From positions 52,762,001-52,826,000 of the forward strand of contig OZ024743.1 of assembly GCA_964016885.1 (NCBI GenBank): 64,000 nt of DNA, read 5' to 3'. Of this stretch, positions 1,587-58,209 are shown piece after piece. The first letter of the stretch is position 1; every line of letters begins with the position of its first letter. The DNA is from Eledone cirrhosa (lineage: Eukaryota). Below the pieces are notes generated by a model that worked only from the letters and a program-made list of their open reading frames with translations, did not search any database and was not told the DNA's origin. The position numbers and the translations under genes are program-made.

Positions 1587-1616
1587 TAAGGAATAATAAT
1601 AATACTAATAATGTCC

Positions 1617-1735
1617 GTTTACAATTGTTTCGCTACTCCATATAATGTTTCTGGATCAAATGATTATAGATCATTATTGATCTGGGCCAGATGAAGATAA
1701 TTAACTTAGGTAAAAATGGAGCAGCTCATCGGAAC
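1617..1735 (-). ncRNA. Type I HHR with long stem II and U4C core variant
   Basis: Minus: GTT-CCGATGA-GCTGCTCCA...TGGAGTAGC-GAAA-CAATTG-TA-AAC. 9-bp stem II and palindromic stem III. Confidence 0.65.
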
Positions 1736-1852
1736 TTCAAAAGAGATAATGAAAATATTGATAAGGAATATAAATTGGCTTCTAACTAATTCACCAATCT
1801 CTTCTCCTCTCCTATCTCCATCTCTCTCTTTAAGATTGGTTTACTCTTGAAC

Positions 1853-4418: not shown

Positions 4419-4710
4419 CTTATAACTATATTTATATCGTCTACGTAACGAGAGTACATGATGAGGTCTATGGAGCTCTCATTAAGGAGATCTTTAAGTC
4501 TCCTTTCCCACCATACCATAAAAAGGTTGGCAACATCACCAGCTATGCTGACGCCAATGGCTGCTCCCTCAATTTGGGTGTAGATCTTCTCGTTGAACTT
4601 GAATATGTGGCCCTTTAGGGTAGTTTTGATACTAGCCCCTATTGCATGTGCGACCATTTTTCTTACCTGATCATTGTTTTTGGAGGTCTGTATAGCTTTG
4701 TACTCTCGTT
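4415..4710 (-). pseudogene. Penelope-like RT core fragment (inverted 5' part of the 4713-5850 element)
   Basis: HIFKFNEKIYTQIEGAAIGVSIAGDVANLFM...YSRYVDDINIVIRT contains PLE RT motifs. Confidence 0.85.
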
Positions 4711-4712
4711 AC

Positions 4713-5850
4713 GAGACGATATCAATATCGTTATAAGAACACCCCCACTAGAGAGCACTAACAAGTTTGATTTAGAACGTAGCACAATGGAAAGCATCCA
4801 GCAGATAGCTAATTCCATACACCAGAGTATAACTGTAACTATCGACTACCCTTCCAAACACCCTAACAATAGACTACCTGTATTAGACACGGAACTCTGG
4901 ATTAACACTATAGACGAGAGAGCCCAAATTCTCCACTCACACTATGCTAAACCCATGGCCTCCAAATACCTGATACTCAAAAACTCAGCAATGTCCAGTA
5001 GTGCTAAGTTTAATATTCTGATCGCAGATTTGGTACGAGTGATGAAGAATGTGTCCCGCATGTGCGACCCAACAGAAATGGAAAGACACATCCAACACTT
5101 CATCAACCGCATGCAGTTCTCTGGCTACAACCAAAGAGACAGAGTCAGAGTATACGAAGGAGCCATGGAGAAGTATAAGACCCTCATAGAACTGGACATG
5201 AAAGGAATTTGCCCATTATACAGGAGCAAATCATGGAATAGCTTAGATAGGGCTAGACATAAGATAGGGAAAGCCACCTCATGGTACGACAACCAGAGAT
5301 ACCAGAGTGTCATGTTTGTGGACGTTACCCCTAGAGGGAAATTAGCTAACCAGTGTAGAAAGGCCCTGAGAAAGACCCACTTAAAGATTAAGGTGGTAGA
5401 AAAGCCAGGAACCACCATAAAATCCCTGATCAGCAAAACCTACCCTTTTAAGAAAACCCACTGTACTAATAGGAAATGTATCATATGTAAGGTAAACCCC
5501 CGGATAAACTGTAAAACTAGAAACGTAGTCTATAGCATAAGATGTACAGAGGGTACTTGCAGAAACATGACTACAACATACATAGGCGAGACAGCTCGTA
5601 GCATAGGTGAAAGGATAGACCAACACTGGGGGAACTAAAAGGACGAAAAAACGGGTCAATACTATACGAACATGCCAGACAACAACACGACGGTAACATA
5701 GGCAACATAGAAATTAGAATAATATCTAAACATAGAAATGACCCAGCAGATAGGCAAATCAGAGAGGCCAGTGAAATAGAACTTAGAAGGCCAAGACTAA
5801 ACAGAAAGAATGAATGGAATAACAAAAACACCCAAACAAACAACACTGAC
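4713..5850 (+). pseudogene. Penelope-like element: RT C-terminal half/thumb and GIY-YIG endonuclease, frameshifted near 5630
   Basis: DDINIVIRT...LPVLD...HYAKPM...CxxxxCxxC...C, VVYSIRC...YIGETARSIGERI. Next frame continues YEHARQQH...RQIREASEI...LNRKNEW. Confidence 0.9.
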
Positions 5851-6953: not shown

Positions 6954-7188
6954 GACTGACGCTTAAACAATTAAGTTAAAAATGTACATCCACATATGTA
7001 TACTGAAATACTAGTATGCATATGAATACACACACGTGTACATATGTAGATGTACCGAGTTTTTCACTGGACACTTTACTGTGAGTGTTCAGCTATTCTG
7101 TATGTAAACACACAGACAAACCGGTTTTTAGAGTCATACTGGTTTTCGAGGAAACACCTTTCCTCTATTCTCCAGAAAGCCAGACAGG

Positions 7189-7233
7189 AATATTGGACTA
7201 GTTTCGATGTTGCTACATCTCATCAGCAATATT
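7189..7233 (-). ncRNA. Type I HHR (family A, inverted copy)
   Basis: Minus: AATATTG-CTGATGA-GATGT agca ACATC-GAAA-CTAG-TC-CAATATT. Confidence 0.93.
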
Positions 7234-7625
7234 TACCTATCCTCCGGCCTTTCTAGAGAATCGTAAAAGCACATATCGTTATATGCTTTTTCTATGAAAA
7301 TTAGTAGTGGGCAGACTAATTTGCATAGAGCGTGAGTACGAAAACCAGTATGACTCTAAAAACCGGTTTGTCTGTGTGTTTACATACAGAATAGCTGAAC
7401 ACTCACAGTAAAGTGTCCAGTGAAAAACTCGGTACATCTACATATGTACACGTGTGTGTATTCATATGCATACTAGTATTTCAGTATACATATGTGGATG
7501 TACATTTTTAACTTAATTGTTTAAGCGTCAGTCATACAAAAGTGAGTTACAAACGAAGCGAAATTTAATTTCGTTTCGTTATTTGTTTTTATCGTCTCCG
7601 CTGAACCGGTACGTACTCACGCTCT

Positions 7626-7633
7626 ATGCAAAT
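7626..7633 (+). promoter_or_regulatory. Octamer ATGCAAAT in each family A unit (also 8091-8098, 8555-8562, minus 7319-7326)
   Basis: Exact POU-factor octamer 100 nt upstream of the HHR core. Conserved in family B. Function is inferred. Confidence 0.5.
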
Positions 7634-7718
7634 TAGTCTGCCCACTACTAATTTTCATAGAAAAAGCATATAACGATATGTGCTTTTACGATTCTCTAGA
7701 AAGGCCGGAGGATAGGTA

Positions 7719-7763
7719 AATATTGCTGATGAGATGTAACAACATCGAAACTAATCCAATATT
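7719..7763 (+). ncRNA. Type I HHR (family A copy 1; stem III CTAG changed to CTAA)
   Basis: AATATTG-CTGATGA-GATGT aaca ACATC-GAAA-CTAA-TC-CAATATT. Confidence 0.88.
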
Positions 7764-8183
7764 CCTGTCTGGCTTTCTGGTGAATAGAGGAAAGGTGTTT
7801 CCTCGAAAACCAGTATGACTCTAAAAACCGGTTTGTCTGTGTGTTTACATACAGAATAGCTGAACACTCACAGTAAAGTGTCCAGTGAAAAACTCGGTAC
7901 ATCTACATATGTACACGTGTGTGTATTCATATGCATACTAGTATTTCAGTATACATATGTGGATGTACATTTTTAACTTAATTGTTTAAGCGTCAGTCAT
8001 ACAAAAGTGAGTTACAAACGAAGCGAAATTTAATTTCGTTTCGTTATTTGTTTTTATCGTCTCCGCTGAACCGGTACGTACTCACGCTCTATGCAAATTA
8101 GTCTGCCCACTACTAATTTTCATAGAAAAAGCATATAACGATATGTGCTTTTACGATTCTCTAGAAAGGCCGGAGGATAGGTA

Positions 8184-8228
8184 AATATTGCTGATGAGAT
8201 GTAACAACATCGAAACTAGTCCAATATT
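8184..8228 (+). ncRNA. Type I HHR (family A copy 2), predicted cleavage after GUC at 8221
   Basis: AATATTG-CTGATGA-GATGT aaca ACATC-GAAA-CTAG-TC-CAATATT. Confidence 0.95.
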
Positions 8229-8647
8229 CCTGTCTGGCTTTCTGGTGAATAGAGGAAAGGTGTTTCCTCGAAAACCAGTATGACTCTAAAAACCGGTTTG
8301 TCTGTGTGTTTACATACAGAATAGCTGAACACTCACAGTAAAGTGTCCAGTGAAAAACTCGGTACATCTACATATGTACACGTGTGTGTATTCATATGCA
8401 TACTAGTATTTCAGTATACATATGTGGATGTACATTTTTAACTTAATTGTTTAAGCGTCAGTCATACAAAAGTGAGTTACAAACGAAGCGAAATTTAATT
8501 TCGTTCGTTATTTGTTTTTATCGTCTCCGCTGAACCGGTACGTACTCACGCTCTATGCAAATTAGTCTGCCCACTACTAATTTTCATAGAAAAAGCATAT
8601 AACGATATGTGCTTTTACGATTCTCTAGAAAGGCCGGAGGATAGGTA

Positions 8648-8692
8648 AATATTGCTGATGAGATGTAACAACATCGAAACTAGTCCAATATT
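8648..8692 (+). ncRNA. Type I HHR (family A copy 3), predicted cleavage after 8685
   Basis: Identical to copy 2. Confidence 0.95.
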
Positions 8693-9199
8693 CCTGTCTG
8701 GCTTTCTGGTGAATAGAGGAAAGGTGTTTCCTCGAAAACCAGTATGACTCTAAAAACCGGTTTGTCTGTGTGTTTACATACAGAATAGCTGAACACTCAC
8801 AGTAAAGTGTCCAGTGAAAAACTCGGTACATCTACATATGTACACGTGTGTGTATTCATATGCATACTAGTATTTCAGTATACATATGTGGATGTACATT
8901 TTTAACTTAATTGTTTAAGCGTCAGTCATACAAAAGTGAGTTACAAACGAAGCGAAATTTAATTTCGTTTCGTTATTTGTATATATATATGCATGTATGT
9001 ATATACCTTGGCAGTTTTCCTATCAATCATGTAAGCCGACCAAGTAAATAAACTAATGTGAAGGAGTTTTGCAGAAATACTGTTTGAGTATATTTGTTGT
9101 GAAGAGGTAATGTTTATATCTAAATGTTAGTGTTTCACTTAAACAGTTGTTAATACCTTGTAGTGTTTGTAATATCAACATTTTCACAGACATATATAA

Positions 9200-14814: not shown

Positions 14815-15713
14815 TAATTGTGTATGGTTGATGGTATATTTAGTCAGTTTCTACACGCTGTCGAAATGTTGGATAAATACTCTATTGGGGCCACCGCGAA
14901 GAGGCCGCTTTCGGTTATTTGTCGGAAATTTCTTCATAAGAGCCTTTATTCTTATAGCTTGGTCTAATTGATTTTTTATATGGTTAATTATGCTAATTGG
15001 GAGAGGAAATGGTATATATTTTATCTAATAATTCTAAGGACATGATTTATGATATATTGCTCTGATTATTTAGTTTATTAATTCTTCATAGAGCTACAAC
15101 GTGACCGGTTGCAACATATATATCTATGACTTTATGTTTATGTATATGTAAACCTTTATATTTAATAATCTCCCGATAGGTTGAGATACAATTGGGTGAT
15201 ATTAGGCTGCGCTTTTTAGCAACAAGCCTACCTGCCGTAAGCAACTCATCACATTCTTTCTAACTTGACCACTGCAACGTCACGATTCTTAGCCATTTTT
15301 TAATCTATTTTTGGCGCGATCACTTTGGAAAACTAAATGTCTAATTTTGAATTTGTCTCCTGATGAATCCGATACTCCAGACATATCCTATTAATTGGAC
15401 GTCTAAAAATACGGATGAAACCATGGTAGAGATATAATTACGGTATGTACACATTTCTTCTAAGTTTGAATTTGCACCTAATTGTGTATGGTTGATGGTA
15501 TATTTAGTCAGTTTCTACACGCTGTCGAAATGTTGGATAAATACTCTATTGGGGCCACCGCGAAGAGGCCGCTTTCGGTTATTTGTCGGAAATTTCTTCA
15601 TAAGAGCCTTTATTCTTATAGCTTGGTCTAATTGATTTTTTATATGGTTAATTATGCTAATTGGGAGAGGAAATGGTATATATTTTATCTAATAATTCTA
15701 AGGACATGATTTA

Positions 15714-15720
<7 letters not shown>
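14815..15720 (+). mobile_element. Retrozyme/pLTR-like element, family C: 664-bp unit with ~240-bp direct terminal redundancy
   Basis: TAATTGTGTATGGTTGATGG... starts at both 14815 and 15479. Internal HHR. (TA)n flanks. Confidence 0.85.
15354..15434 (+). ncRNA. Type I HHR (family C), predicted cleavage after GUA at 15428
   Basis: TGTCTC-CTGATGA-ATCCG...CGGAT-GAAA-CCATGG-TA-GAGATA. Confidence 0.88.
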
Positions 15721-15769: not shown

Positions 15770-18700
15770 GTGAAAAATGGAACGGGAACAAAACAGAGAG
15801 GCAGTAAGAACAAAGGTTTATTAGTTTCACGCTCTTGAGAGTGGGGAGGGGGGACGTTTCAAGCATAAGCCCTTCTTCAGGCGAAAAGTGGGTGGGAAGA
15901 GAGTTCCGAGGGTGTGTAGGGGAGTGGAAGAGAGACATTTAGAAAAGGGGGGGAGAGGTGGAAGGGGTACAAATAAAAATAAAAATAAAAATAAATAAAC
16001 ATGAAGATAAACAAGTGGTGGAAGGATCTGGGGCGTATAGGGGTGGTGGCGGGTGGAGTGGGGAGAGGTAGGCGAGGTGTCCGAGCGGGGAGGACTGAAG
16101 GTGGTGTATGTGTGTAGGTGTACGTGTGTGTGTGAGAGTTGGGGGAAGAACGAGGTTCCATGTTCAGGAAAAGGTGTGTGTGGGGTGGGGTGTAGGTCGG
16201 CGTGTGTGTGCGTGTGGATGGGGAGGGGTCAGAGGGGTGGGGGAGGAGGGGGGGGGACGATTCCGGAGGCTGAGTGTGTATATATGTGGGGGTACGCACG
16301 TGTGTGTGGTGTTTATACGTTTTGTGGATGTAGGTGGCGTTGTTCGAAAAAAATGTTTGTGAGTGTATGTCCGTGGGTAAGTTCCTAAGGTAGTTCCGTA
16401 GAGGGTGTGAAGAGCTGCCGGATATTTTCCATGTGGTGGAGTAGATAGTGGGAACGATGGCCAATGGTGTGTAATCCGTGGTTGTGGTAATCGGAAGAGG
16501 GGAGATGTGGGGTGCGCGCGCAACAGGAAGTGCTCAGAGGGTCAAGGCAGGAGGAGGGTAGAGGAGTGACAGGTGGAGAGGACTGTGTGTCTGTGTGTGC
16601 GGAGAAGTGGTCAGAGGGTCAAGGCATAGCAGAGGTAGAGGAGAATGGCAGGTGGAGAAAGTTAGTGTGTCAGTGTGTGCGGAGGTGCGGGGTACAGGGG
16701 AGAGGATGGGTAGGTGTGAAAGGTGGAGTGGGGAGGGGGTCATGTGGGGGGATGGGGTGTGTATTGGTAGAGGTGTTAGTGGGATGTATGTGTGTGTGTG
16801 AAGGGGCGTGGGTGGAGCGGGGAGAGGGAGAGAAAAGGTGTGGAGGGAGTGTAGTGTACTGGTGCGTGTGTGCGTGTTTGGATGAGTGTGTGTGTGGTGA
16901 AGGGGGTGTTAGTGGATGTTAGTATACTGGTGGTGGGGAAAGGGTTGAATGCGGGTGTGTTAGTGGGGGTCAGTGGTGGTAGGGTGTGTAGAGTGGGTGG
17001 TGTAAGTGGGTGTGGTGGGTGTGTGTGTGTTCGTGTGCGTGGAGTCGGGGGGATGTTACTATTGTTAGTTGTGGGGTGGGCCAAGGGGTTAAGTGGTGAA
17101 AAGGAGGAGTGTGTTAGTGGTGTTAATGGGGGATATGTGTGTGTGGGGGGAGGGGACAGGGCGGTCGAAGGCTAAAGGAATAGGCGTGGGGAGTTCAGGC
17201 GGTAGGGGAGTGTGGGTCTGTAGGGTGAAGATGGTGCGTTGTTCGACCCTGAGGCGGGTGGCGGGTGTTCCGTGGCATTGGAGTAGGCCACAGACTGTGA
17301 GGTGGTGCGCGGAATGTCCAGGAGAGCCAAAGTGGCGGGCGATAGGGGAACTCCCGCCGAGACGAATATCCCGGAGGTGTTCGGTGAAACGGTCAGCCAG
17401 GCGCCGCCCAGTCTGTCCGATGTAGGTTGCGCTGCATTCCGTGCAACGAAGTCCATAGACTAGGTTGGAGGAGGTGCAGCGGAAAGCGTGCCGGATAGAG
17501 AGAGAGAGGCCGTTGGGACCCTGGAAGGTGGTGGTGTTGGTGATCTGGGGGCAGGTGTTACAACGAGGCCTGGAACAGGGAAGGGAACTGGGGGGGGGAG
17601 AGTGTGGTTTGGGGGGTAGTGAGCAGCGGACGAGGAGGGTGCGGAGATTACGTGCGCGTTTGAAGGAGGGGAGTGGTGGGGATGGAAACATGTGGGAGGT
17701 GGAGGGGTTGGACTGGAGGTGTCGGAAGAGGCAGAAAATGGTGCGGTGGAGGGGTAGGGTGGAGGGTGGTAGGTGATGAGGAAGGGGAGACGGTGGGTGG
17801 GTGTGCGGTGGCGTGGGGTGAACGTGGTGGAGCGGTGGACAGCACGGGCGCGAGTGAGGGCGGTGTGGACGAGAGAGAGGGGGGGGGTAACCTCTGCGGA
17901 TGAAATAGCTGACTAGGGAAAGGGCCTGGGACTCAAAGTCAGCATCTCGGCTGCAGAGGGGTTGGGAGTAGGGAATAGAGTGTTTAGTGTATGTGGGGTG
18001 GGAAGAGGTGAAGTCGAGGTAGGAGTGGGAGTCGGTGGGTTTGAAGAAGGCGGAGGTGACGAGGGAGTGGTGGGAGGGGTCGATGGCGACGGAGATGTCT
18101 AAGAAGTGGACGTGGGTGGTGGAGATAGAGGTGGTGAAGTGGACGGGTGGGGGGGGGGGGGAGCAGAAGAAGGAGAGAAAGGAGTCGAGCTGTTCTCGGG
18201 TGAGGGTCGTGGCTCCGATACAGTCGTCGATGTAACGACCGTACAGTTCGGCCGTGGGGCCAGTGTACTGGGCAAAGATTTGGGCCTCAACAAGGCCAAC
18301 GAAAAGGTTGGCATAGTTTGGGCCCATTCTTGTGCCCATGGCTACTCCGTGACCTGTTGGTAAAACTCATCCGAGAAGGAGAAGCAGTTGAGGGTGAGGA
18401 CCAGCTCGGCGAGGCGAAGGAGTGTGGGGTGGAAGGGATGGGGGAGGGGCAAAGGTCGAGGTAGTGCTTGAGGGCACGTAGGCCGTCGGCGTGGGGAATG
18501 ACAGTATAAAGCGACTTGATATCTAGGGTGAAGAGGAAGGGCTGTGGGCCGGGTGGGAAGGTGAAGGAGTTGAATAGGCGAAGGACGTGGTTGGTGTCGG
18601 AGATGTGGGAGGGGAGGGTGGTGACGAGGGGGGCGAGGATGGAGTCAAGAAAGGCGGAGATGAGTTCGGTGGGGCTGTTGCAAGCGGAGACGATGGGGCG

Positions 18701-19232
18701 GTCGGGGTTGTCGGGTTTGTGGAGTTTGGGGAGGAAGTAGATAGTGGGGTGCGGGGGTTGCGGACGATGAGGTGGGAAGCGGGGGAGGGAGGAGGGAAGA
18801 GGAGACAAGGTGTTGGATGGTGGAGGAAACTTGTTGTTGGTAGAGGGGTGTGGGGTCGGAGGGTAGAGGGCGGTAGAAGAGGGGGTTACGGAGCTGCCTG
18901 AGGGCTTCAGCCGTGTAGAGGTCAGCGCGCCACACCCTCACGGCGCCTCCCTTGTCCGCCGGTTTGATGACGATGTCATCTCGGCTACGGAGGCAGCGGA
19001 GAGAGAGGAGTTCACCCCGTGAGATGTTATGCCGTTTGGACCGGTGGCGGAAGTCGAAGCGATTTACTGCGCTACGGAAGGCGTCGACGAACGCGTCCAG
19101 GGTGCTAAATTGCCCTGGGGCCGGCGTCAAAGACGATGGTCGTCGGCCCAGGGCGAGAAACGGGTCTGGGGCGTTCGGAACCGATGGCGTTTGATGAAAA
19201 TGTGCCTGTAGCTTAGTGCGATAGGAAAAGAA
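15770..19232 (-). mobile_element. Near-complete, frameshifted, GC-rich Penelope-like element with long 3' region
   Basis: Consecutive frames: IVIKPADKGGAV, YFLPKLHKPDNP.RPIVS, LDIKSLYTVIPH, MGTRMGPNYANLF, RYIDD, FLDI, KPTDSHSYL, C..PRCNTC, LVYGLRC...YIGQTGRRLADRFTEH (GIY-YIG). 3' HHR-like motif then AATAAA near 15816-15821. Confidence 0.93.
15853..15888 (-). ncRNA. Minimal HHR-like motif in the PLE 3' terminus
   Basis: Minus: CTGAAGA-AGGGCTTATGCTT-GAAAC-GTC. Stem I is poorly paired. Confidence 0.55.
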
Positions 19233-29462: not shown

Positions 29463-29590
29463 AAAGTTCTATTTAAAATTGTTGGGATACAACAAGTAAA
29501 TATTTTTATAACTGATATAAAGCACTCGACAAGTATTTGGAGTAGATATACGATATTAATAAATGGAAACTATATTTATAAAACCATATT

Positions 29591-29655
29591 TATTTCATTA
29601 TACATATTTCAGGGATACCAAATTAAATTATGGTATGCCTTCATCAGACAAAATA
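29591..29655 (-). ncRNA. Type I HHR (family G)
   Basis: Minus: TATTTTGT-CTGATGA-AGGCATACC...GGTATCCCT-GAAA-TATGTA-TA-ATGAAATA. Confidence 0.82.
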
Positions 29656-31585
29656 CAATATATAACAGTTTTACAAATAAGCTTTGACGTACCCTATTAA
29701 AATGCAACCATTGTTTTTGGAAGTCATCCGGATAGTGAATTGTTTATATAACTTTAATAAGTTATGAAAAAGTCGGAGAGAAAGAAAAAGACCGAGAGAA
29801 AGAAAAACGTGGAGAAATATCGGAGAGAGAGAGAGATGCATGGAGAAAAAAAAGAAAGAGATAAGTAAAGACAGGAGGAAAGGAAGACAGAAGAAAAAAG
29901 GAAGACATAAGAAAAACAGAGGAAAGCAACAGAGAGATATTAAGTCAACAGACAGATAGAATCTGTTGTCCTAATATCTTTTCTGGAACTTTTGTTGTCT
30001 CGTGTCACAACATTGTGGTGTAAATACCAAACACAGACATACACACACACACATATATATATATACATTCACACATACACATATGTACAGACACACAAAT
30101 AAGCGCACGCGCACACACACACACACACACATACACACGCGCGCGCACATACACACAAACACACACATACACACAGACAGACACACAAACACACACAGAC
30201 AGACAGACAGACACACACACACACACACAGACACACATATATACACAGACACACACCTACCACACACAGACACACACAGACACACAACCACACACACATA
30301 TTGGTGTTAAGAGCCAATCTAATCTGGAATGTTCTTTACTGGAATTACCACAGTTTCAATGGCAGAGATAGTCTTACAGAAACATAATTAATACACACAC
30401 ACACATATACAGACACACACACACAGACACACACACATATACAGACACACACATATACACACACACACACACAGAGACAGACACACACACATATACAGAC
30501 ACACAGACACACAGACACACAGACACACAGACACACACAGACACACAGACAGACACAGACACGCATACACATACAGACAGACACACACACAGACACAGGC
30601 TCACATACACACAGACACATACAGACACAGACACACACACACACAGAGACACACACACACACACACACAGACACACAGACACACAGACACACAGACACAC
30701 ACACACACACACACAGGAACACACAGACACACACACACACAGACACACACAGACACAGACACTCAGACACACAGACACAGGCACACATACACACACACAC
30801 ACACAAATACACACACACACAGGCACACACACAGAGACACAAATACACACACACACATAGACACACACACACATACATACATATATATATATATACACAC
30901 ACTCACTCACTCTCACGTACACATGCTCATACAACCTCACACACCTCCCTCTCACCCACACTCCTTCCCACCTTTTCCATTCTACCACCTCTTTCTCCCA
31001 CCCCATCTCTGCCGCTCTCCTTATCATCTCTCTCTCTCTCTTCGTCCTTCACTCCCCCCTCCTCCTCCTCCTCTTCTTCTTCTTCCTCGTCCTATTTCCC
31101 CCCTCCCCGACCTATTCTCATTTCTTACCACCCCGTCTTCCCCCGTCTCCCACCCGTCTCCCACCCCCCTCTCTCTCTGCCCTTCTCACTCACTCCAATG
31201 ATCACACAGGTTCGATATCCAATCAATCAGTCGCTATTTTCCCTGGATTTTTCTTTCACTTTTTCTTTTCTTTCCTTTCTCCATTTCTATCCAATGTTCC
31301 AACACAAATAAACATAAAATCAATTTTCCATGAAACAAACCACAAATCAAACAACAGGAAGGCACCAGGACGTTTTAAGATTTCAAAATTCAGTTTAAAG
31401 TATTTAAAATTTAAAGTATCTAATTTGACGAGTGTTAAACTTAAAAATAAAAATAAAAATTAAACAAATGTAAAAATTAAAGAAATGTAAAAATGAAACA
31501 ATCTCACAGTAGTTGCCTGTGGAAATATGACATATATATATATATATATAGAATCATTAGAACATCTGGCTGATAAAATGACAAG

Positions 31586-44676: not shown

Positions 44677-44958
44677 ATAATATAAGATCAAAAGATGGTT
44701 AAAAGAGTTCCATGTATTTTATTATGCGCATTTCAAAAACAAATATCATCATGCGATGACATTTGCGTTTTCGTCAGATATAATAGGGAGACATGATATG
44801 AAGGTTAAAAAACTGCACTAATCACAAGTGTTTTTTAACCTTCATATCATGTCTCCCTATTTTATCTGACGAAAATGCAAATGTCATCGCATGATGATAT
44901 TTGTTTTTGAAATGCGCATAATAAAATACATGGAACTCTTTTAACCGTCTTTTGATCT

Positions 44959-45018: not shown

Positions 45019-45269
45019 GTAGAACACTGGAAGGTAATATCCGTAGTGGTAGAGCACTCAGTCCATGGGACGAGTTAGGTAGAAGTAGTAACACAACAGT
45101 TTCATCTTATGGGGATCTTCAGCTCGGACCAGTAAAACAATGAGTTATTTAATTTGTTGATTATTCAACAAAGTGAATTTATAACAGATTAGAAGCACTC
45201 AACAAAATTATTCTGGAGTATAATATCAATAATATTAATAAATGGAAACTATCTTTATAAAACCATATT

Positions 45270-45330
45270 TATTTTATTATATATATTTCAAGGGCACCAG
45301 TATTTTGGTAAGCTCTCATCAGATAAAATA
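45270..45330 (-). ncRNA. Type I HHR (family G copy 2)
   Basis: Minus: TATTTTAT-CTGATGA-GAGCTTACCA...TGGTGCCCTT-GAAA-TATATA-TA-ATAAAATA. Flank is similar to 29520-29600. Confidence 0.82.
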
Positions 45331-45434
45331 TAATATTTCGTTTAAAGATAGTGACATATCGACATATGAACTTAATGTTATGAGTTCAATGCATATATAT
45401 ATATTGATATAGACACACACACACACACACACAT

Positions 45435-53086: not shown

Positions 53087-53890
53087 TAACAGCAGTACCC
53101 AGCGTTGCCTGGGTAGGTAAAATAATATCTGCTTTGATGAAAAGGTGTTGATCTTAGCGACTGCTTCTCGATGACATCTATGGCCACACACAGGCCATGC
53201 GGGGGAGGGTGGTGATGACCTTTATCACTGAGAAACGCGGGTGACTGACGAAGGGGCATGCTGGGGGAAGGAGTTTCGAATTTGAACGAAATCGGTTGAA
53301 AAATGTGGGAGCTAGAGCCGAAAAGGCGGAAATTTGAGCGAAAAGGTGGTATTTTCGAATATTTAAGCGGCTGCCACGCCGTTCCTGAACAAAAAAAATC
53401 CAAAATATAAAGCCACTTTAAGACGTGAAATAATCAGATCTAGCGTAGTGTAAAATTTGAACAAAGTACGTTGATTAATGTGGGAGCTAAAGCCGAAAAA
53501 GTGGAAATTTGAGTCTAAAAGTAGTATTTTTGAATATTTAAGCGGCTGCCACGCCGTCCCTGAACAGCAAATGCAAGATATAAAGCTATTACAGGATGTG
53601 CAATGATAAATTCTATTTTGCTTTAAAATTTGGATGAAATCAGTGGCAAAATGTGGGAGCTAGAGGCAAAAATCTTATTTTTCGATACCTAAAAAAAGTG
53701 ACCTCCTATCGATTTTTATCTGCAGAATAACCACGGAATAAAAAAAAAACGATACGGAGATATATAGAAAACACTCCCCGATGACTAATCTATGAGCCTG
53801 TAAAGTTTCATGAAAATCGGTCGGAAGATGTAGGCCCCTATAGGTAATACACAGACACACACACACATACTTAAATTTTATATATATACA
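53084..53890 (+). mobile_element. Non-autonomous Helitron/Helentron-like (DINE-1/HINE-type) element with ~174-bp internal repeats
   Basis: Starts ACTAACAGCAGTACCCAGCGTTGCCTGGGTA (subterminal hairpin). AAATTTG..AAT(C/A)..AATGTGGGAGCTA repeated about 3 times. Ends AAAGTTTCATGAAAATCGG..(CA)n..TTTTATATA. Confidence 0.6.
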
Positions 53891-53914
53891 GATATATATA
53901 TATGTATATATATA

Positions 53915-54314
53915 ACGAAGGAAATGTGGTAAGGAACCAGGTGGACCATAACTCGCCAGAGTACTCGATACTTTGGGTAGTAGAGTGGATAATAGGAAAA
54001 GAGTCAGAACCCCGACGACAGAGCTCAAGCCGTTTCGACAGCTATTTCTGGACCTCTTTTTTGTCGTTAGGTTTCCTGTATGGGTAGTACAGATCATTTT
54101 CGAGGTTGATTGTAACGTCCATGAAATTGACTCGGGCTAGGGACGTCTGTAGGGTGATTTTGAAACCCCAATCCCGGAAGAAGTTGATTAGGTGTTTAAG
54201 GACCCGGTCCGTACTACTGGGGTTGTACCCTTTGAGGGCAAGGAGCCCATCGTCTCGGTCCAGAAATAGCTGCCGAAACGGCTTTAGCTCTGCCGTCGGA
54301 GTTCTGACTATTTT

Positions 54315-54318
<4 letters not shown>
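53915..54318 (-). mobile_element. PLE RT fragment (RDDGL type) between inverted copies of the 19233 repeat family
   Basis: RDDGLLAL...[40 protein letters not shown], with GGTCCAGAAATAGC... inverted on either side. Confidence 0.8.
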
Positions 54319-55967: not shown

Positions 55968-55972
55968 TATAT

Positions 55973-56003
<31 letters not shown>

Positions 56004-56030
56004 CATATATATATATATATGTATATATAA

Positions 56031-57611
56031 TTAATACAATAACAGAGATAGTTTAAAGCTAAACTCTGACTGGTAACCATCTCACTCAACAAACATTAGG
56101 TTATATTTAAATATAAACCCAATTTAAGTGTTTGGGGTGCTAACAATATGTATAATGTGGAAAAACCAGTTGTATTATTTTATGAGATATAATTAAAGTT
56201 AAAGTATATCTCTCTTTCCAAACAATTGTTTCATTATAAGTTTTCTACAAGTTTGGGAGAATGTTTCCAGTTTATGTAGAAGCCTAATATATATTCAAGT
56301 AAGAATATATTTAGGTGGGCACTTATAATTCATCAGTGGAAGCCCATTAAACATTGATATAAGAAAACAATTTCTTACCGCTGTCAAAAATCATGTCCGT
56401 AAAGTTACTTTCTCTCTCACCTCGAATGACTGCCAAATTTGAAATTCCAGCAGTTTTTGACTGAGGAAGTATCATAGCGACACGAAGCGGGAAGGGGAGA
56501 CAACCCACGAAATGAGGAAAAAAAATGATATACACGCGGGTTAATTAGTTTTTTTGAAAACATTATCAATCCAACATGTTTAAGAACTCAATTGAAAATA
56601 AAAAAATAAATATATGCTTGTATAAATTACACACGCATATAGATATTTTCTTAGGCTAAATCAGAAGTTGTACCCGAATAAGAACCGCTTCTCATAATCG
56701 CAGTAAATGCAGAAAGTTATGCTATAAAGGGCAAATGGGAATATAATTCTCCGGCCGAATTATTAAGAGTAAAATATAAAACACACGCGGGTTAATTAGT
56801 TATTTCAAAACCAATATTAATTCCTCGTGTAAAGAACTCAATTAATAAAATAAAATAAATACATATATGCATGTAATTATATACGTAGGCATATATATAA
56901 ATATTTTCCTTGGCTAAAAAATAGAGAAGTTACAACCAAAAAAAGCCACAATATTTCACAACAGTAATAAATACGGAAAGTCAAATTCATAAGGTACCTG
57001 GAAATAAACACCTCTGGCCAATCAAGAGTAAATATTTAATACAATAACAGAGATAGTTTAAAGCTAAACTCTGACTGGTAACCATCTCACTCAACAAACA
57101 TTAGGTTATATTAAAATATAAACCCAATTTAAGTGTTTGGGGTGCTAACAATATGTATAATGTGGAAAAACCAGTTGTATTATTTTATGAGATATAATTA
57201 AAGTTAAAGTATATCTCTCTTTCCAAACAATTGTTTCATTATAAGTTTTCTACAAGTTTGGGAGAATGTTTCCAGTTTATGTAGAAGCCTAATATATATT
57301 CAAGTAAGAATATATTTAGGTGGGCACTTATAATTCATCAGCGGAAGCCCATTAAACATTGATATAAGAAAACAATTTCTTACCGCTGTCAAAAATCATG
57401 TCCGTAAAGTTACTCTCTCTCTCACCTCGAATGACCGCCAAATTTGAAATTCCAGCAGTTTTTGACTGAGGAAGTATCATAGCAACACGAAGCGGGAAGG
57501 GGAGACAACCCACGAAATGAGGAAAAAAAATAATATACACGCGGGTTAATTAGTGTTTTTGAAAACATTATCAATCCAACATGTTTAAGAACTCAATTGA
57601 AAATAAAAAAA

Positions 57612-57615
<4 letters not shown>
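56031..57615 (-). mobile_element. Retrozyme-like family E: ~1.6 tandem copies of a 1005-bp unit
   Basis: TTAATACAATAACAGAG at 56031 and 57036. One HHR per unit. Two diverged ~250-bp subrepeats starting ACACGCGGGTTAATTAGT (56532, 56783). (TA)n flanks. Confidence 0.85.
56216..56341 (-). ncRNA. Type I HHR with branched ~100-nt stem II (family E); second copy 57221-57346
   Basis: Minus: TTCCA-CTGATGA-ATTATAAG...CTTATAAT-GAAA-CAATTG-TT-TGGAA. Copy 2 has TTCCG, changing A-U to a G-U wobble. Confidence 0.85.
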
Positions 57616-57650
<35 letters not shown>

Positions 57651-57676
57651 AAAGAATAGAGGTGTAACACACAAGT

Positions 57677-58201
57677 TATATATTGGTAAACGGAATAGAA
57701 AATGCTGACAAATTGTTCACAGTTGAAAAATGGTTTAATTAGGAATAAAAGAGGATTAGTGATTGTATGGGTTAGTATTCAGTTGTGGTTTTAAGTTTTT
57801 AAGTTTTTACCGGTTGCGCATTTCTAAATGCTTTTCAAAAATAATTTTGAGATAGAGTGTCCGTGCTGTTTGCTCTGATCTGATTAGTTTGGGGAATTCT
57901 ACCTGTTTTTATGTTAAAAAGTGGCTCCAGCGTTACTTTGCAACACAAAAATAACGCTGGAGCCACTTTTTTAACATAAAAACAGGTAGAATTCCCCAAA
58001 CTAATCAGATCAGAGCAAACAGCACGGACACTCTATCTCAAAATTATTTTTGAAAAGCATTTAGAAATGCGCAACCGGTAAAAACTTAAAAACTTAAAAC
58101 CACAACTGAATACTAACCCATACAATCACTAATACTCTTTTATTCCTAATTAAACCATTTTTCAACTGTGAACAATTTGTCAGCATTTTCTATTCCGTTT
58201 A

Positions 58202-58209
<8 letters not shown>
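57677..58209. repeat. Near-perfect inverted repeat, ~258-bp arms, 16-bp spacer, degenerate HHR in each arm
   Basis: Arms 57677-57935 and 57952-58209. TTT-TTGAAAA-GCATT taga AATGC-GCAA-CCGG-TA-AAA at 58047-58083. Confidence 0.9.

Follow-up and report, generated by a model that had tools for sequence, protein, structure and literature searches.

A non-coding 1005-bp repeat of Eledone cirrhosa carries in each unit a type I hammerhead whose stem II is enlarged to a branched domain. We consider it probable that the repeat is a protein-free, high-copy element of the animal retrozyme type, likely copied by the enzyme of a PLE, and that its branched hammerhead likely cleaves itself in vivo. With respect to the published work that we found, the covarying branched stem II and what appears to be a genomic trace of cleavage are new. 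The window, i.e. the whole stretch of DNA analysed, comprises 64,000 nucleotides. What the initial annotation of the window had observed was confirmed, and its interpretation was partly supported.

Layout of the insertion

The insertion consists of one full unit and, upstream of it, a 5'-truncated part of 576 bp (1.57 units), and does not form a long array. As initially annotated, the hammerheads are spaced by exactly 1005 bp on the minus strand, with CUGAUGA cores at 57335-57341 and 56330-56336. The segments 56031-56606 and 57036-57611 are 98.8% identical, with 7 differences. No coding frame was found in the 1005-bp unit, the longest stop-free frame being 65 codons in sense and 41 codons in antisense direction. 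The features are as follows.

56031..57611, minus strand: whole insertion, 1.57 head-to-tail units of a non-coding repeat
56031..57035, minus strand: full 1005-bp unit
57036..57611, minus strand: upstream unit lacking its 5' part, 98.8% identity with the 3' portion of the full unit
57221..57351, minus strand: upstream hammerhead; predicted cut (GUU) between 57226 and 57225
56216..56346, minus strand: downstream hammerhead; core 56330-56336, GAAA and stem III 56221-56232, predicted cut 56221/56220
56233..56329, minus strand: stem II domain of 97 nt with 8-9-bp base, GCCCA linker and hairpins A and B; covariation
56283-56315, minus strand: hairpin A of the stem II domain
56243-56281, minus strand: hairpin B of the stem II domain
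56316..56346, minus strand: candidate pseudoknot UGGGC (56342-56346) / GCCCA (56316-56320)
56221..57225, minus strand: predicted cut-to-cut monomer, 1005 nt, 30% G+C
56031..56220, minus strand: structured 3' domain of 190 nt, closing helix ending at the fixed 3' end of the insertion
56520..57032, minus strand: old internal duplication of approx. 255 bp (56771-57032 vs 56520-56773, 69%)
55968..56030, no strand: (TA)n tract at the 3' end, target
57616..57646, no strand: (TA)n tract at the 5' end

Folded as a circle, the predicted monomer reached -227.5 kcal/mol, compared with -189.7 ± 9.2 kcal/mol for 12 shuffles.

Adjoining the 5' end of the insertion is a near-perfect palindrome of 521 bp with a tail of approx. 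40 bp (window 57645-58204). It is a member of a different repeat family, which is young and has one end fixed within (TA)n (995 candidates, the best 40 at 98%), and in the part shared by seven of its loci neither a hammerhead core nor a coding frame was seen. Window 6955-8977 has a classic PLE layout with 465-bp tandem units, short hammerheads (Rfam HH9, below the gathering score) and an inverted 386-bp piece. Further hammerhead motifs with stem II inserts of 26-50 nt are located at 14815-15715, 29470-29661, 44866-44920 and 45146-45336; one pair among them, 664 bp apart, has 237 identical bases in common. Remnants of broken PLE coding sequence, of two types or more, are present at 4619-5638, 17089-19232 and 53279-54316.

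Fold and covariation of the branched hammerhead

The motif reads, in order, a 5-bp stem I, CUGAUGA, 97 nt, GAAA, the palindromic CAAUUG of stem III, GUU and again stem I. Both copies show the type I order of CUGANGA, GAAA and NUH with three stems, and two consecutive hammerheads with complete cores are present at one locus. The 97 nt between CUGAUGA and GAAA agree with the branched insertion of approx. 100 nt and the two hairpins that had been annotated. The 8-bp stem II base given there holds for the majority of the family, in which U.U stands at the core-proximal pair, but not for the two copies of the window, where a locus-private A extends the base to 9 bp.

The 156-nt ribozyme region folded better than shuffled sequences (z -3.15, 1 of 200 shuffles as good). 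Its minimum-energy fold was not the hammerhead fold; in the two copies of the window the latter lay above it by 1.5 and 2.5 kcal/mol, respectively. When 56031-57620 was compared with Rfam at E<=10, no hammerhead was among the 12 weak matches, in line with the earlier remark that the long stem II could escape standard models; short hammerheads elsewhere in the window were scored by Rfam.

For the covariation analysis, 141 motifs of the lineage were reduced to 20 cluster representatives, two of these with internal deletions were removed, and the window copy was added, giving 19 rows. In these rows 89.6% of the cells pair, and 12 of the 46 pairs change on both sides, namely one in stem I, three in the stem II base, four in hairpin A, two in hairpin B and two in the stem III palindrome. 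Cells changed on both sides numbered 44 compared with 19.4 after shuffling (none of 500 shuffles was as high), and slid controls gave 2-4 both-side-changing pairs and in one control 5; as the 19 rows are related, such counts can be inflated and are not probabilities. RNAalifold alone did not predict stem I and the stem II base, and both were counted as named structure instead. Counts of core conservation were not used as evidence, because the search pattern required the core. We propose that the extra hairpins of stem II form a conserved scaffold.

Stem III stays palindromic through CAATTG, CGATCG and CGGCCG, which fits the dimer model for PLE hammerheads as given in the accessible text of PMC4209133. 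At the core-proximal pair of stem II, 137 distinct motifs had U.U in 90, A-U in 22 and G-C in 21 cases; cleavage is possible with U.U at the stem II base according to the available parts of PMC7229834 and PMC3088659. A GGGC just 5' of stem I and a GCCC in the junction are near-invariant and could pair in 18-19 of the 19 rows, among which no compensatory change was found. This short pseudoknot, a candidate only, may supply the contact between stem I and stem II.

Copies in the genome, 3' domain and origin of the unit size

Copies were searched in the whole genome (3.0 Gb). A first look gave 2,915 candidates, and the 40 of them that were scored had 95-99% identity over the matched length. A 27-base motif of the 3' end had 1,485 exact matches genome-wide, a lower bound for the family that does not fit the single-copy local duplication considered in the initial annotation; for the wider lineage, a motif of the common 3' domain had 6,025 exact matches. 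The repeat family is dispersed, young and mobile. Relatives occur in other organisms (24 of 30 bins in X5).

The 3' end was identical in all 30 best loci. For the 5' ends, the first 100 matches of the 3' motif on contig C1 were taken, which correspond to 88 loci and, after five repeats of a place were dropped, to 83 insertions. In 77 of them (TA)n was found at most 30 nt from the 3' end, and four of the other six run on into a unit start. Their 5' ends are variable and scattered along the unit, and most copies are single truncated units or partial dimers, not long arrays. The features of PLE-type insertion, i.e. a fixed 3' end, 5' truncation, partial tandems and a microsatellite target, were all found, in agreement with what PMC8557442 describes for PLEs. 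Uncommon extras were an inverted 5' segment in L128 and a 70-nt extension in L081; inverted pieces were also seen at C2:399521465 and C2:206519226.

Between the cut and the 3' end, 190 nt form a multi-helix domain, in which 10 of 50 pairs change on both sides among 16 rows of the lineage. This domain is likely the start signal for copying. A fold that ends at the fixed 3' end matches the internal initiation at an RNA structure reported for the anole PLE in the accessible text of PMC11167929.

Sister families have units of 729-743 bp, 699-714 bp (763 matches) and 759-767 bp (442 matches). In one array, L073/L171, units of two sister families are joined head to tail with spacings of 701 and 714 bp. 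The old internal duplication of approx. 250 bp, already recognised in the initial annotation, spans unit positions 4-265 and 263-516 (69% identical), and it is absent from the 729-743-bp sister units. The 743-bp sister unit can be aligned twice, with positions 259-1005 of the 1005-bp unit at 82% and with positions 4-268 at 78%, so the 1005-bp unit corresponds to a sister unit of approx. 740 bp plus the duplication of approx. 255 bp. With this origin, the earlier view that the size is much beyond that of metazoan retrozymes was overstated. In the part available, Li, Clavereau and Pollet 2026 (10.64898/2026.07.22.740005) report consensus units between 51 and 972 bp long, with a mean of 650 in ray-finned fish, from a tandem search limited to units of at most 1000 bp, which places 1005 bp at the edge of the known range.

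5' ends of the copies at the predicted cut

Unit positions 815 and 816 flank the predicted cut. Among the 83 insertions, 16 have their 5' end at 816-835 (+1 to +20), none at 796-815 and three at 836-855, while the flanking density would give 1.9 at +1 to +20 (Poisson P about 2e-10; the positions were read manually). Of the 83 ends, 15 fall on the first AT patch after the cut, compared with 0-3 at 14 other patches. Exact patterns searched genome-wide, which differ slightly in subfamily cover, gave 118 junctions at the AT patch of the cut, four at a longer patch 74 nt upstream and five at a patch 29 nt downstream. In 57 further loci of the lineage (56 distinct), 10-12 ends were judged by eye to lie at +1 to +20 and four at -13 to -22. 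Eleven genome matches, ten of which were inspected, begin precisely at the cut, with the stem I strand included, compared with one match in the control. The majority of the ends are not at the cut itself but 6-19 nt beyond it. We do not claim single-base precision, as 13 loci carry T's or ATTGTT before the cut; none of the eight inspected had kept the G of GUU, and four listed ones had.

We concluded that the pile-up of 5' ends after the cut likely reflects cleavage in vivo. In the simplest reading, the enzyme would run off the end of a cut RNA and the copy would anneal to the target at the nearest AT patch. Against cleavage it can be said that GUU and U.U are weak variants and that stem III has only 2 bp as a monomer. 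Two reports count against it as well: in the accessible parts, Li et al. 2026 (10.64898/2026.07.22.740005) observed in-vitro cleavage in one of nine predicted retrozymes, and the anole PLE (PMC11167929) could insert in vitro without cleavage and had no RNA reads ending at the cleavage site.

The element could instead be a non-autonomous PLE derivative with a non-cutting hammerhead and uncut read-through templates, in which case the pile-up would stem from stalling of the RT at the folded ribozyme, from a transcription start or from AT/GA microhomology. The weak triplet and weak closing pair and the available anole PLE data (PMC11167929) would agree with this, and so would the position of the ends mostly 3' of stem I, the hairpin that begins just after the cut and the existence of ends at -1 to -6. 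We nevertheless regard it as improbable. No end in the family sample is found at the base of the stronger stem II (796-815), the longer AT patch gives four junctions compared with 118, the 11 matches starting at the cut contain the stem I strand, and the variants common within a locus, described below, need a homogenising step.

Tandem units and the form of the template

Units of the same locus share non-majority variants at 4.6 per kb, compared with 0.42 per kb across loci (29 of the 30 best loci, one overlap being dropped). For 34 head-to-tail pairs the divergence within the pair was below the median to other copies in 30 cases, equal in three and above in one, and six pairs of a subfamily that is 5-7% away differed within the pair by only 0.8-1.9%. 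The junction at the cut site had no indels in 115 copies. Regular re-homogenisation without scars would be expected of a ligated monomer circle, with gene conversion as the alternative, and the private variants common to the units of one locus point to a circular step. It counts against the circle model that the own partner unit was closest or tied in only 17 of the 34 pairs. Among 15 multi-unit insertions, four end at the cut when it is reached for the second time. A closed circle by itself would not yield such ends, which suggest linear RNAs cut only at the upstream ribozyme. Circular and linear templates likely both exist.

End-to-end template jumps are unlikely as the main route, with no scars in 115 copies, and a fixed two-unit master is unlikely as well, since only 5 of 191 differences between upstream and downstream units recur. 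In L111 the segments 827-1005 and 834-1005 are followed by a full unit, and copying seems to have been restarted at the 3' end after the cut region.

We judge it very unlikely that the tandem units arose by DNA duplication or gene conversion after insertion, with no circular RNA step. Such a process would account for L009, in which two units differ at 1 of 991 sites and the adjoining third differs at 29 of 854, and local amplification is favoured in the accessible text of Li et al. 2026 (10.64898/2026.07.22.740005). However, the 5' truncation of the upstream units falls at many different positions and the 3' end is constant, which is a mark of reverse transcription, and the ends at the cut would be left without explanation.

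Coding PLEs with long-armed hammerheads

The long stem II is not special to the 1005-bp family. The genome pattern CUGAUGA, 75-105 nt, GAAACAATTGT had 3,862 matches and none in the reversed control. By this loose pattern the long-armed CAATTG hammerheads fall into many families, some of them behind coding PLE frames. Among the first 30 pattern loci, five (L034, L036, L039, L048 and L059) lie 400-800 nt behind endonuclease-type frames; four of the five have a CxCx5C linker and a CxxC motif, and L048 has the linker. In the accessible text of Craig et al. 2021 (PMC8557442), CxCx5C/CxxC motifs characterise the Hydra clade, which targets (TA)n. An assignment of the long-armed coding elements to Neptune was rejected, as the motifs fit Hydra, and Pfam gave no name to their endonuclease. 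In single-sequence folds the arms of the coding Hydra-type elements look largely unbranched, and their hammerheads reached at most 22 bits with the ribozyme model R1.

A hammerhead at 1617-1735 (window 1605-1745, minus strand) had initially been likened to the present one. It indeed combines a long stem II with CAATTG, but the core of the window copy is CCGAUGA, and the motif gave no match with model R1, so it is not homologous. It belongs to the L048 family, in which the core is intact elsewhere (G000:C1:75480962; in L048 the motif follows a Hydra-type endonuclease frame).

No coding partner sharing sequence with the unit was found in the coding loci examined. No copy of the family or lineage was seen to run into a PLE reading frame among the few hundred read of more than 6,000, and an RT plus GIY-YIG frame between the repeats was not found in the sample of copies. 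In the copies read, the element is not the terminal repeat of a coding element. The possibility that the unit is the pLTR of an autonomous PLE and the copies its truncated forms, raised in the initial annotation, draws on the Hydra-type coding elements of the E. cirrhosa genome that end in long-armed CAATTG hammerheads, but it can hardly be maintained: dimers join unit end to unit start with no frame between, and only five of 182 locus-strands with the lineage 3' domain have an endonuclease motif upstream (two being one place), these five, like three in a further sample, being set off by (TA)n or lying in families with their own ends.

Two candidates for the partner were rejected. In L197 a sister copy is preceded by a Hydra-type endonuclease frame, but 30 loci of the L197 family have their own 3' end, and within the family only L197's own place matches the unit. 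The L059 family has its own long-armed hammerhead at the end (10 of 30 loci, strict pattern) and no unit match in the loci examined. Judging from the target and the ribozyme design, our best guess is that the partner would be a Hydra-type PLE.

L255-L284 represent an abundant PLE family with Hydra-type motifs. In its 3' region of approx. 450 nt a pattern search did not find a canonical CUGANGA...GAAA hammerhead, although Hydra elements are reportedly never without one. At L040:1-837 the end of a non-LTR element frame (zf-RVT match) is located approx. 660 nt upstream of a long-armed hammerhead, which is likely a nested insertion.

Proposed model

In the features that can be tested on DNA, the element appears to act like an animal retrozyme or a non-autonomous PLE. 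We propose that a locus with more than one unit would be transcribed and that two hammerheads, paired via their palindromic stem III, would cleave behind GUU, which would release a 1005-nt monomer as well as cut linear pieces. Part of the monomer would be ligated into a circle. A PLE protein, most likely of the Hydra type, would then nick (TA)n DNA, and copying would start at the base of the 190-nt 3' domain. On a circle or an uncut RNA the enzyme would run on, resulting in partial tandems like 56031..57611, while on a cut RNA it would run off at the end, resulting in a copy that begins just after the cut.

Only tentatively do we go further and suggest a lineage of more than 6,000 protein-free PLE passengers, in which the three-way junction of stem II would dock on stem I by the pseudoknot and the genome would record the action of the ribozyme, cut RNAs leading to dead-end 190-bp copies and ligated circles to multi-unit sources. 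If true, the docked junction and the distinction between cut and circle copies would provide a direct genomic read-out of hammerhead action in the PLE life cycle.

The role of the hammerhead in endonuclease-bearing PLEs is stated as unclear in the available part of Craig et al. 2021 (PMC8557442), and the one PLE that has been reconstituted worked without cleavage (PMC11167929). Here roughly a fifth of the insertions start shortly downstream of the predicted cut, so that this role can be tested in DNA alone and the RNA ends to be sought are named. Published descriptors, in the parts accessible, use a core spacer of 7-17 nt (PMC8557442) and a tandem period of at most 1000 bp (10.64898/2026.07.22.740005). 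Together with Rfam they would miss such a ribozyme and unit, and animal hammerhead counts are therefore likely low.

Comparison with known systems

We came across neither a natural hammerhead with a branched stem II nor 5' ends located at the cut in the open-access literature searched, and the accessible parts of PMC8490949 and PMC6765202 contain nothing on a long stem II. With the animal non-LTR retrozymes, as far as they are described in the available text of PMC7229834 and 10.64898/2026.07.22.740005, the element shares non-coding tandem units, one type I hammerhead per unit, a low G+C content and co-occurrence with PLEs; the axolotl HHR_Amex2 also has U.U at the stem II base (PMC7229834). 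Their units are typically approx. 300 bp, the longest 972 bp, with a stem II of 4 bp, whereas here the unit is 1005 bp and stem II is branched with 97 nt. The present element occurs mostly as single truncated copies or partial dimers, not as long arrays.

The minimal hammerheads of PLEs (Cervera and de la Pena 2014, PMC4209133, accessible part) are alike in being type I, with a stem I of 4-5 bp, a stem II of 7-8 bp and a palindromic stem III that suggests activity as a dimer. Here, in contrast, stem II has a two-hairpin junction and a candidate pseudoknot, and most of the lineage has U.U or A-U in place of the G10.1-C11.1 pair. Pseudoknotted natural hammerheads (Perreault et al. 2011, PMC3088659) likewise have base pairing between the peripheries of stem I and stem II and tolerate U10.1-U11.1, but their stem II is short and no branched stem II is described in the text available.

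Hydra-clade PLEs, in the accessible part of PMC8557442, resemble the element in their (TA)n targets, partial tandems, occasional inverted 5' pieces and a canonical hammerhead near the 3' end. The coding elements found here with CxCx5C/CxxC/CxH carry stem II arms of 82-90 nt and CAATTG, while the 1005-bp family lacks a reading frame and matches none of the coding elements examined in sequence, and we infer the partnership. The anole Poseidon PLE PAc (Frangieh et al. 2024, PMC11167929, in the part available) is similar in that copying starts at a fixed internal RNA structure and that the targets are AT-rich; no trace of its cut was seen in RNA reads, and the cut was not required in vitro, whereas in E. 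cirrhosa the genomic 5' ends pile up after the predicted cut.
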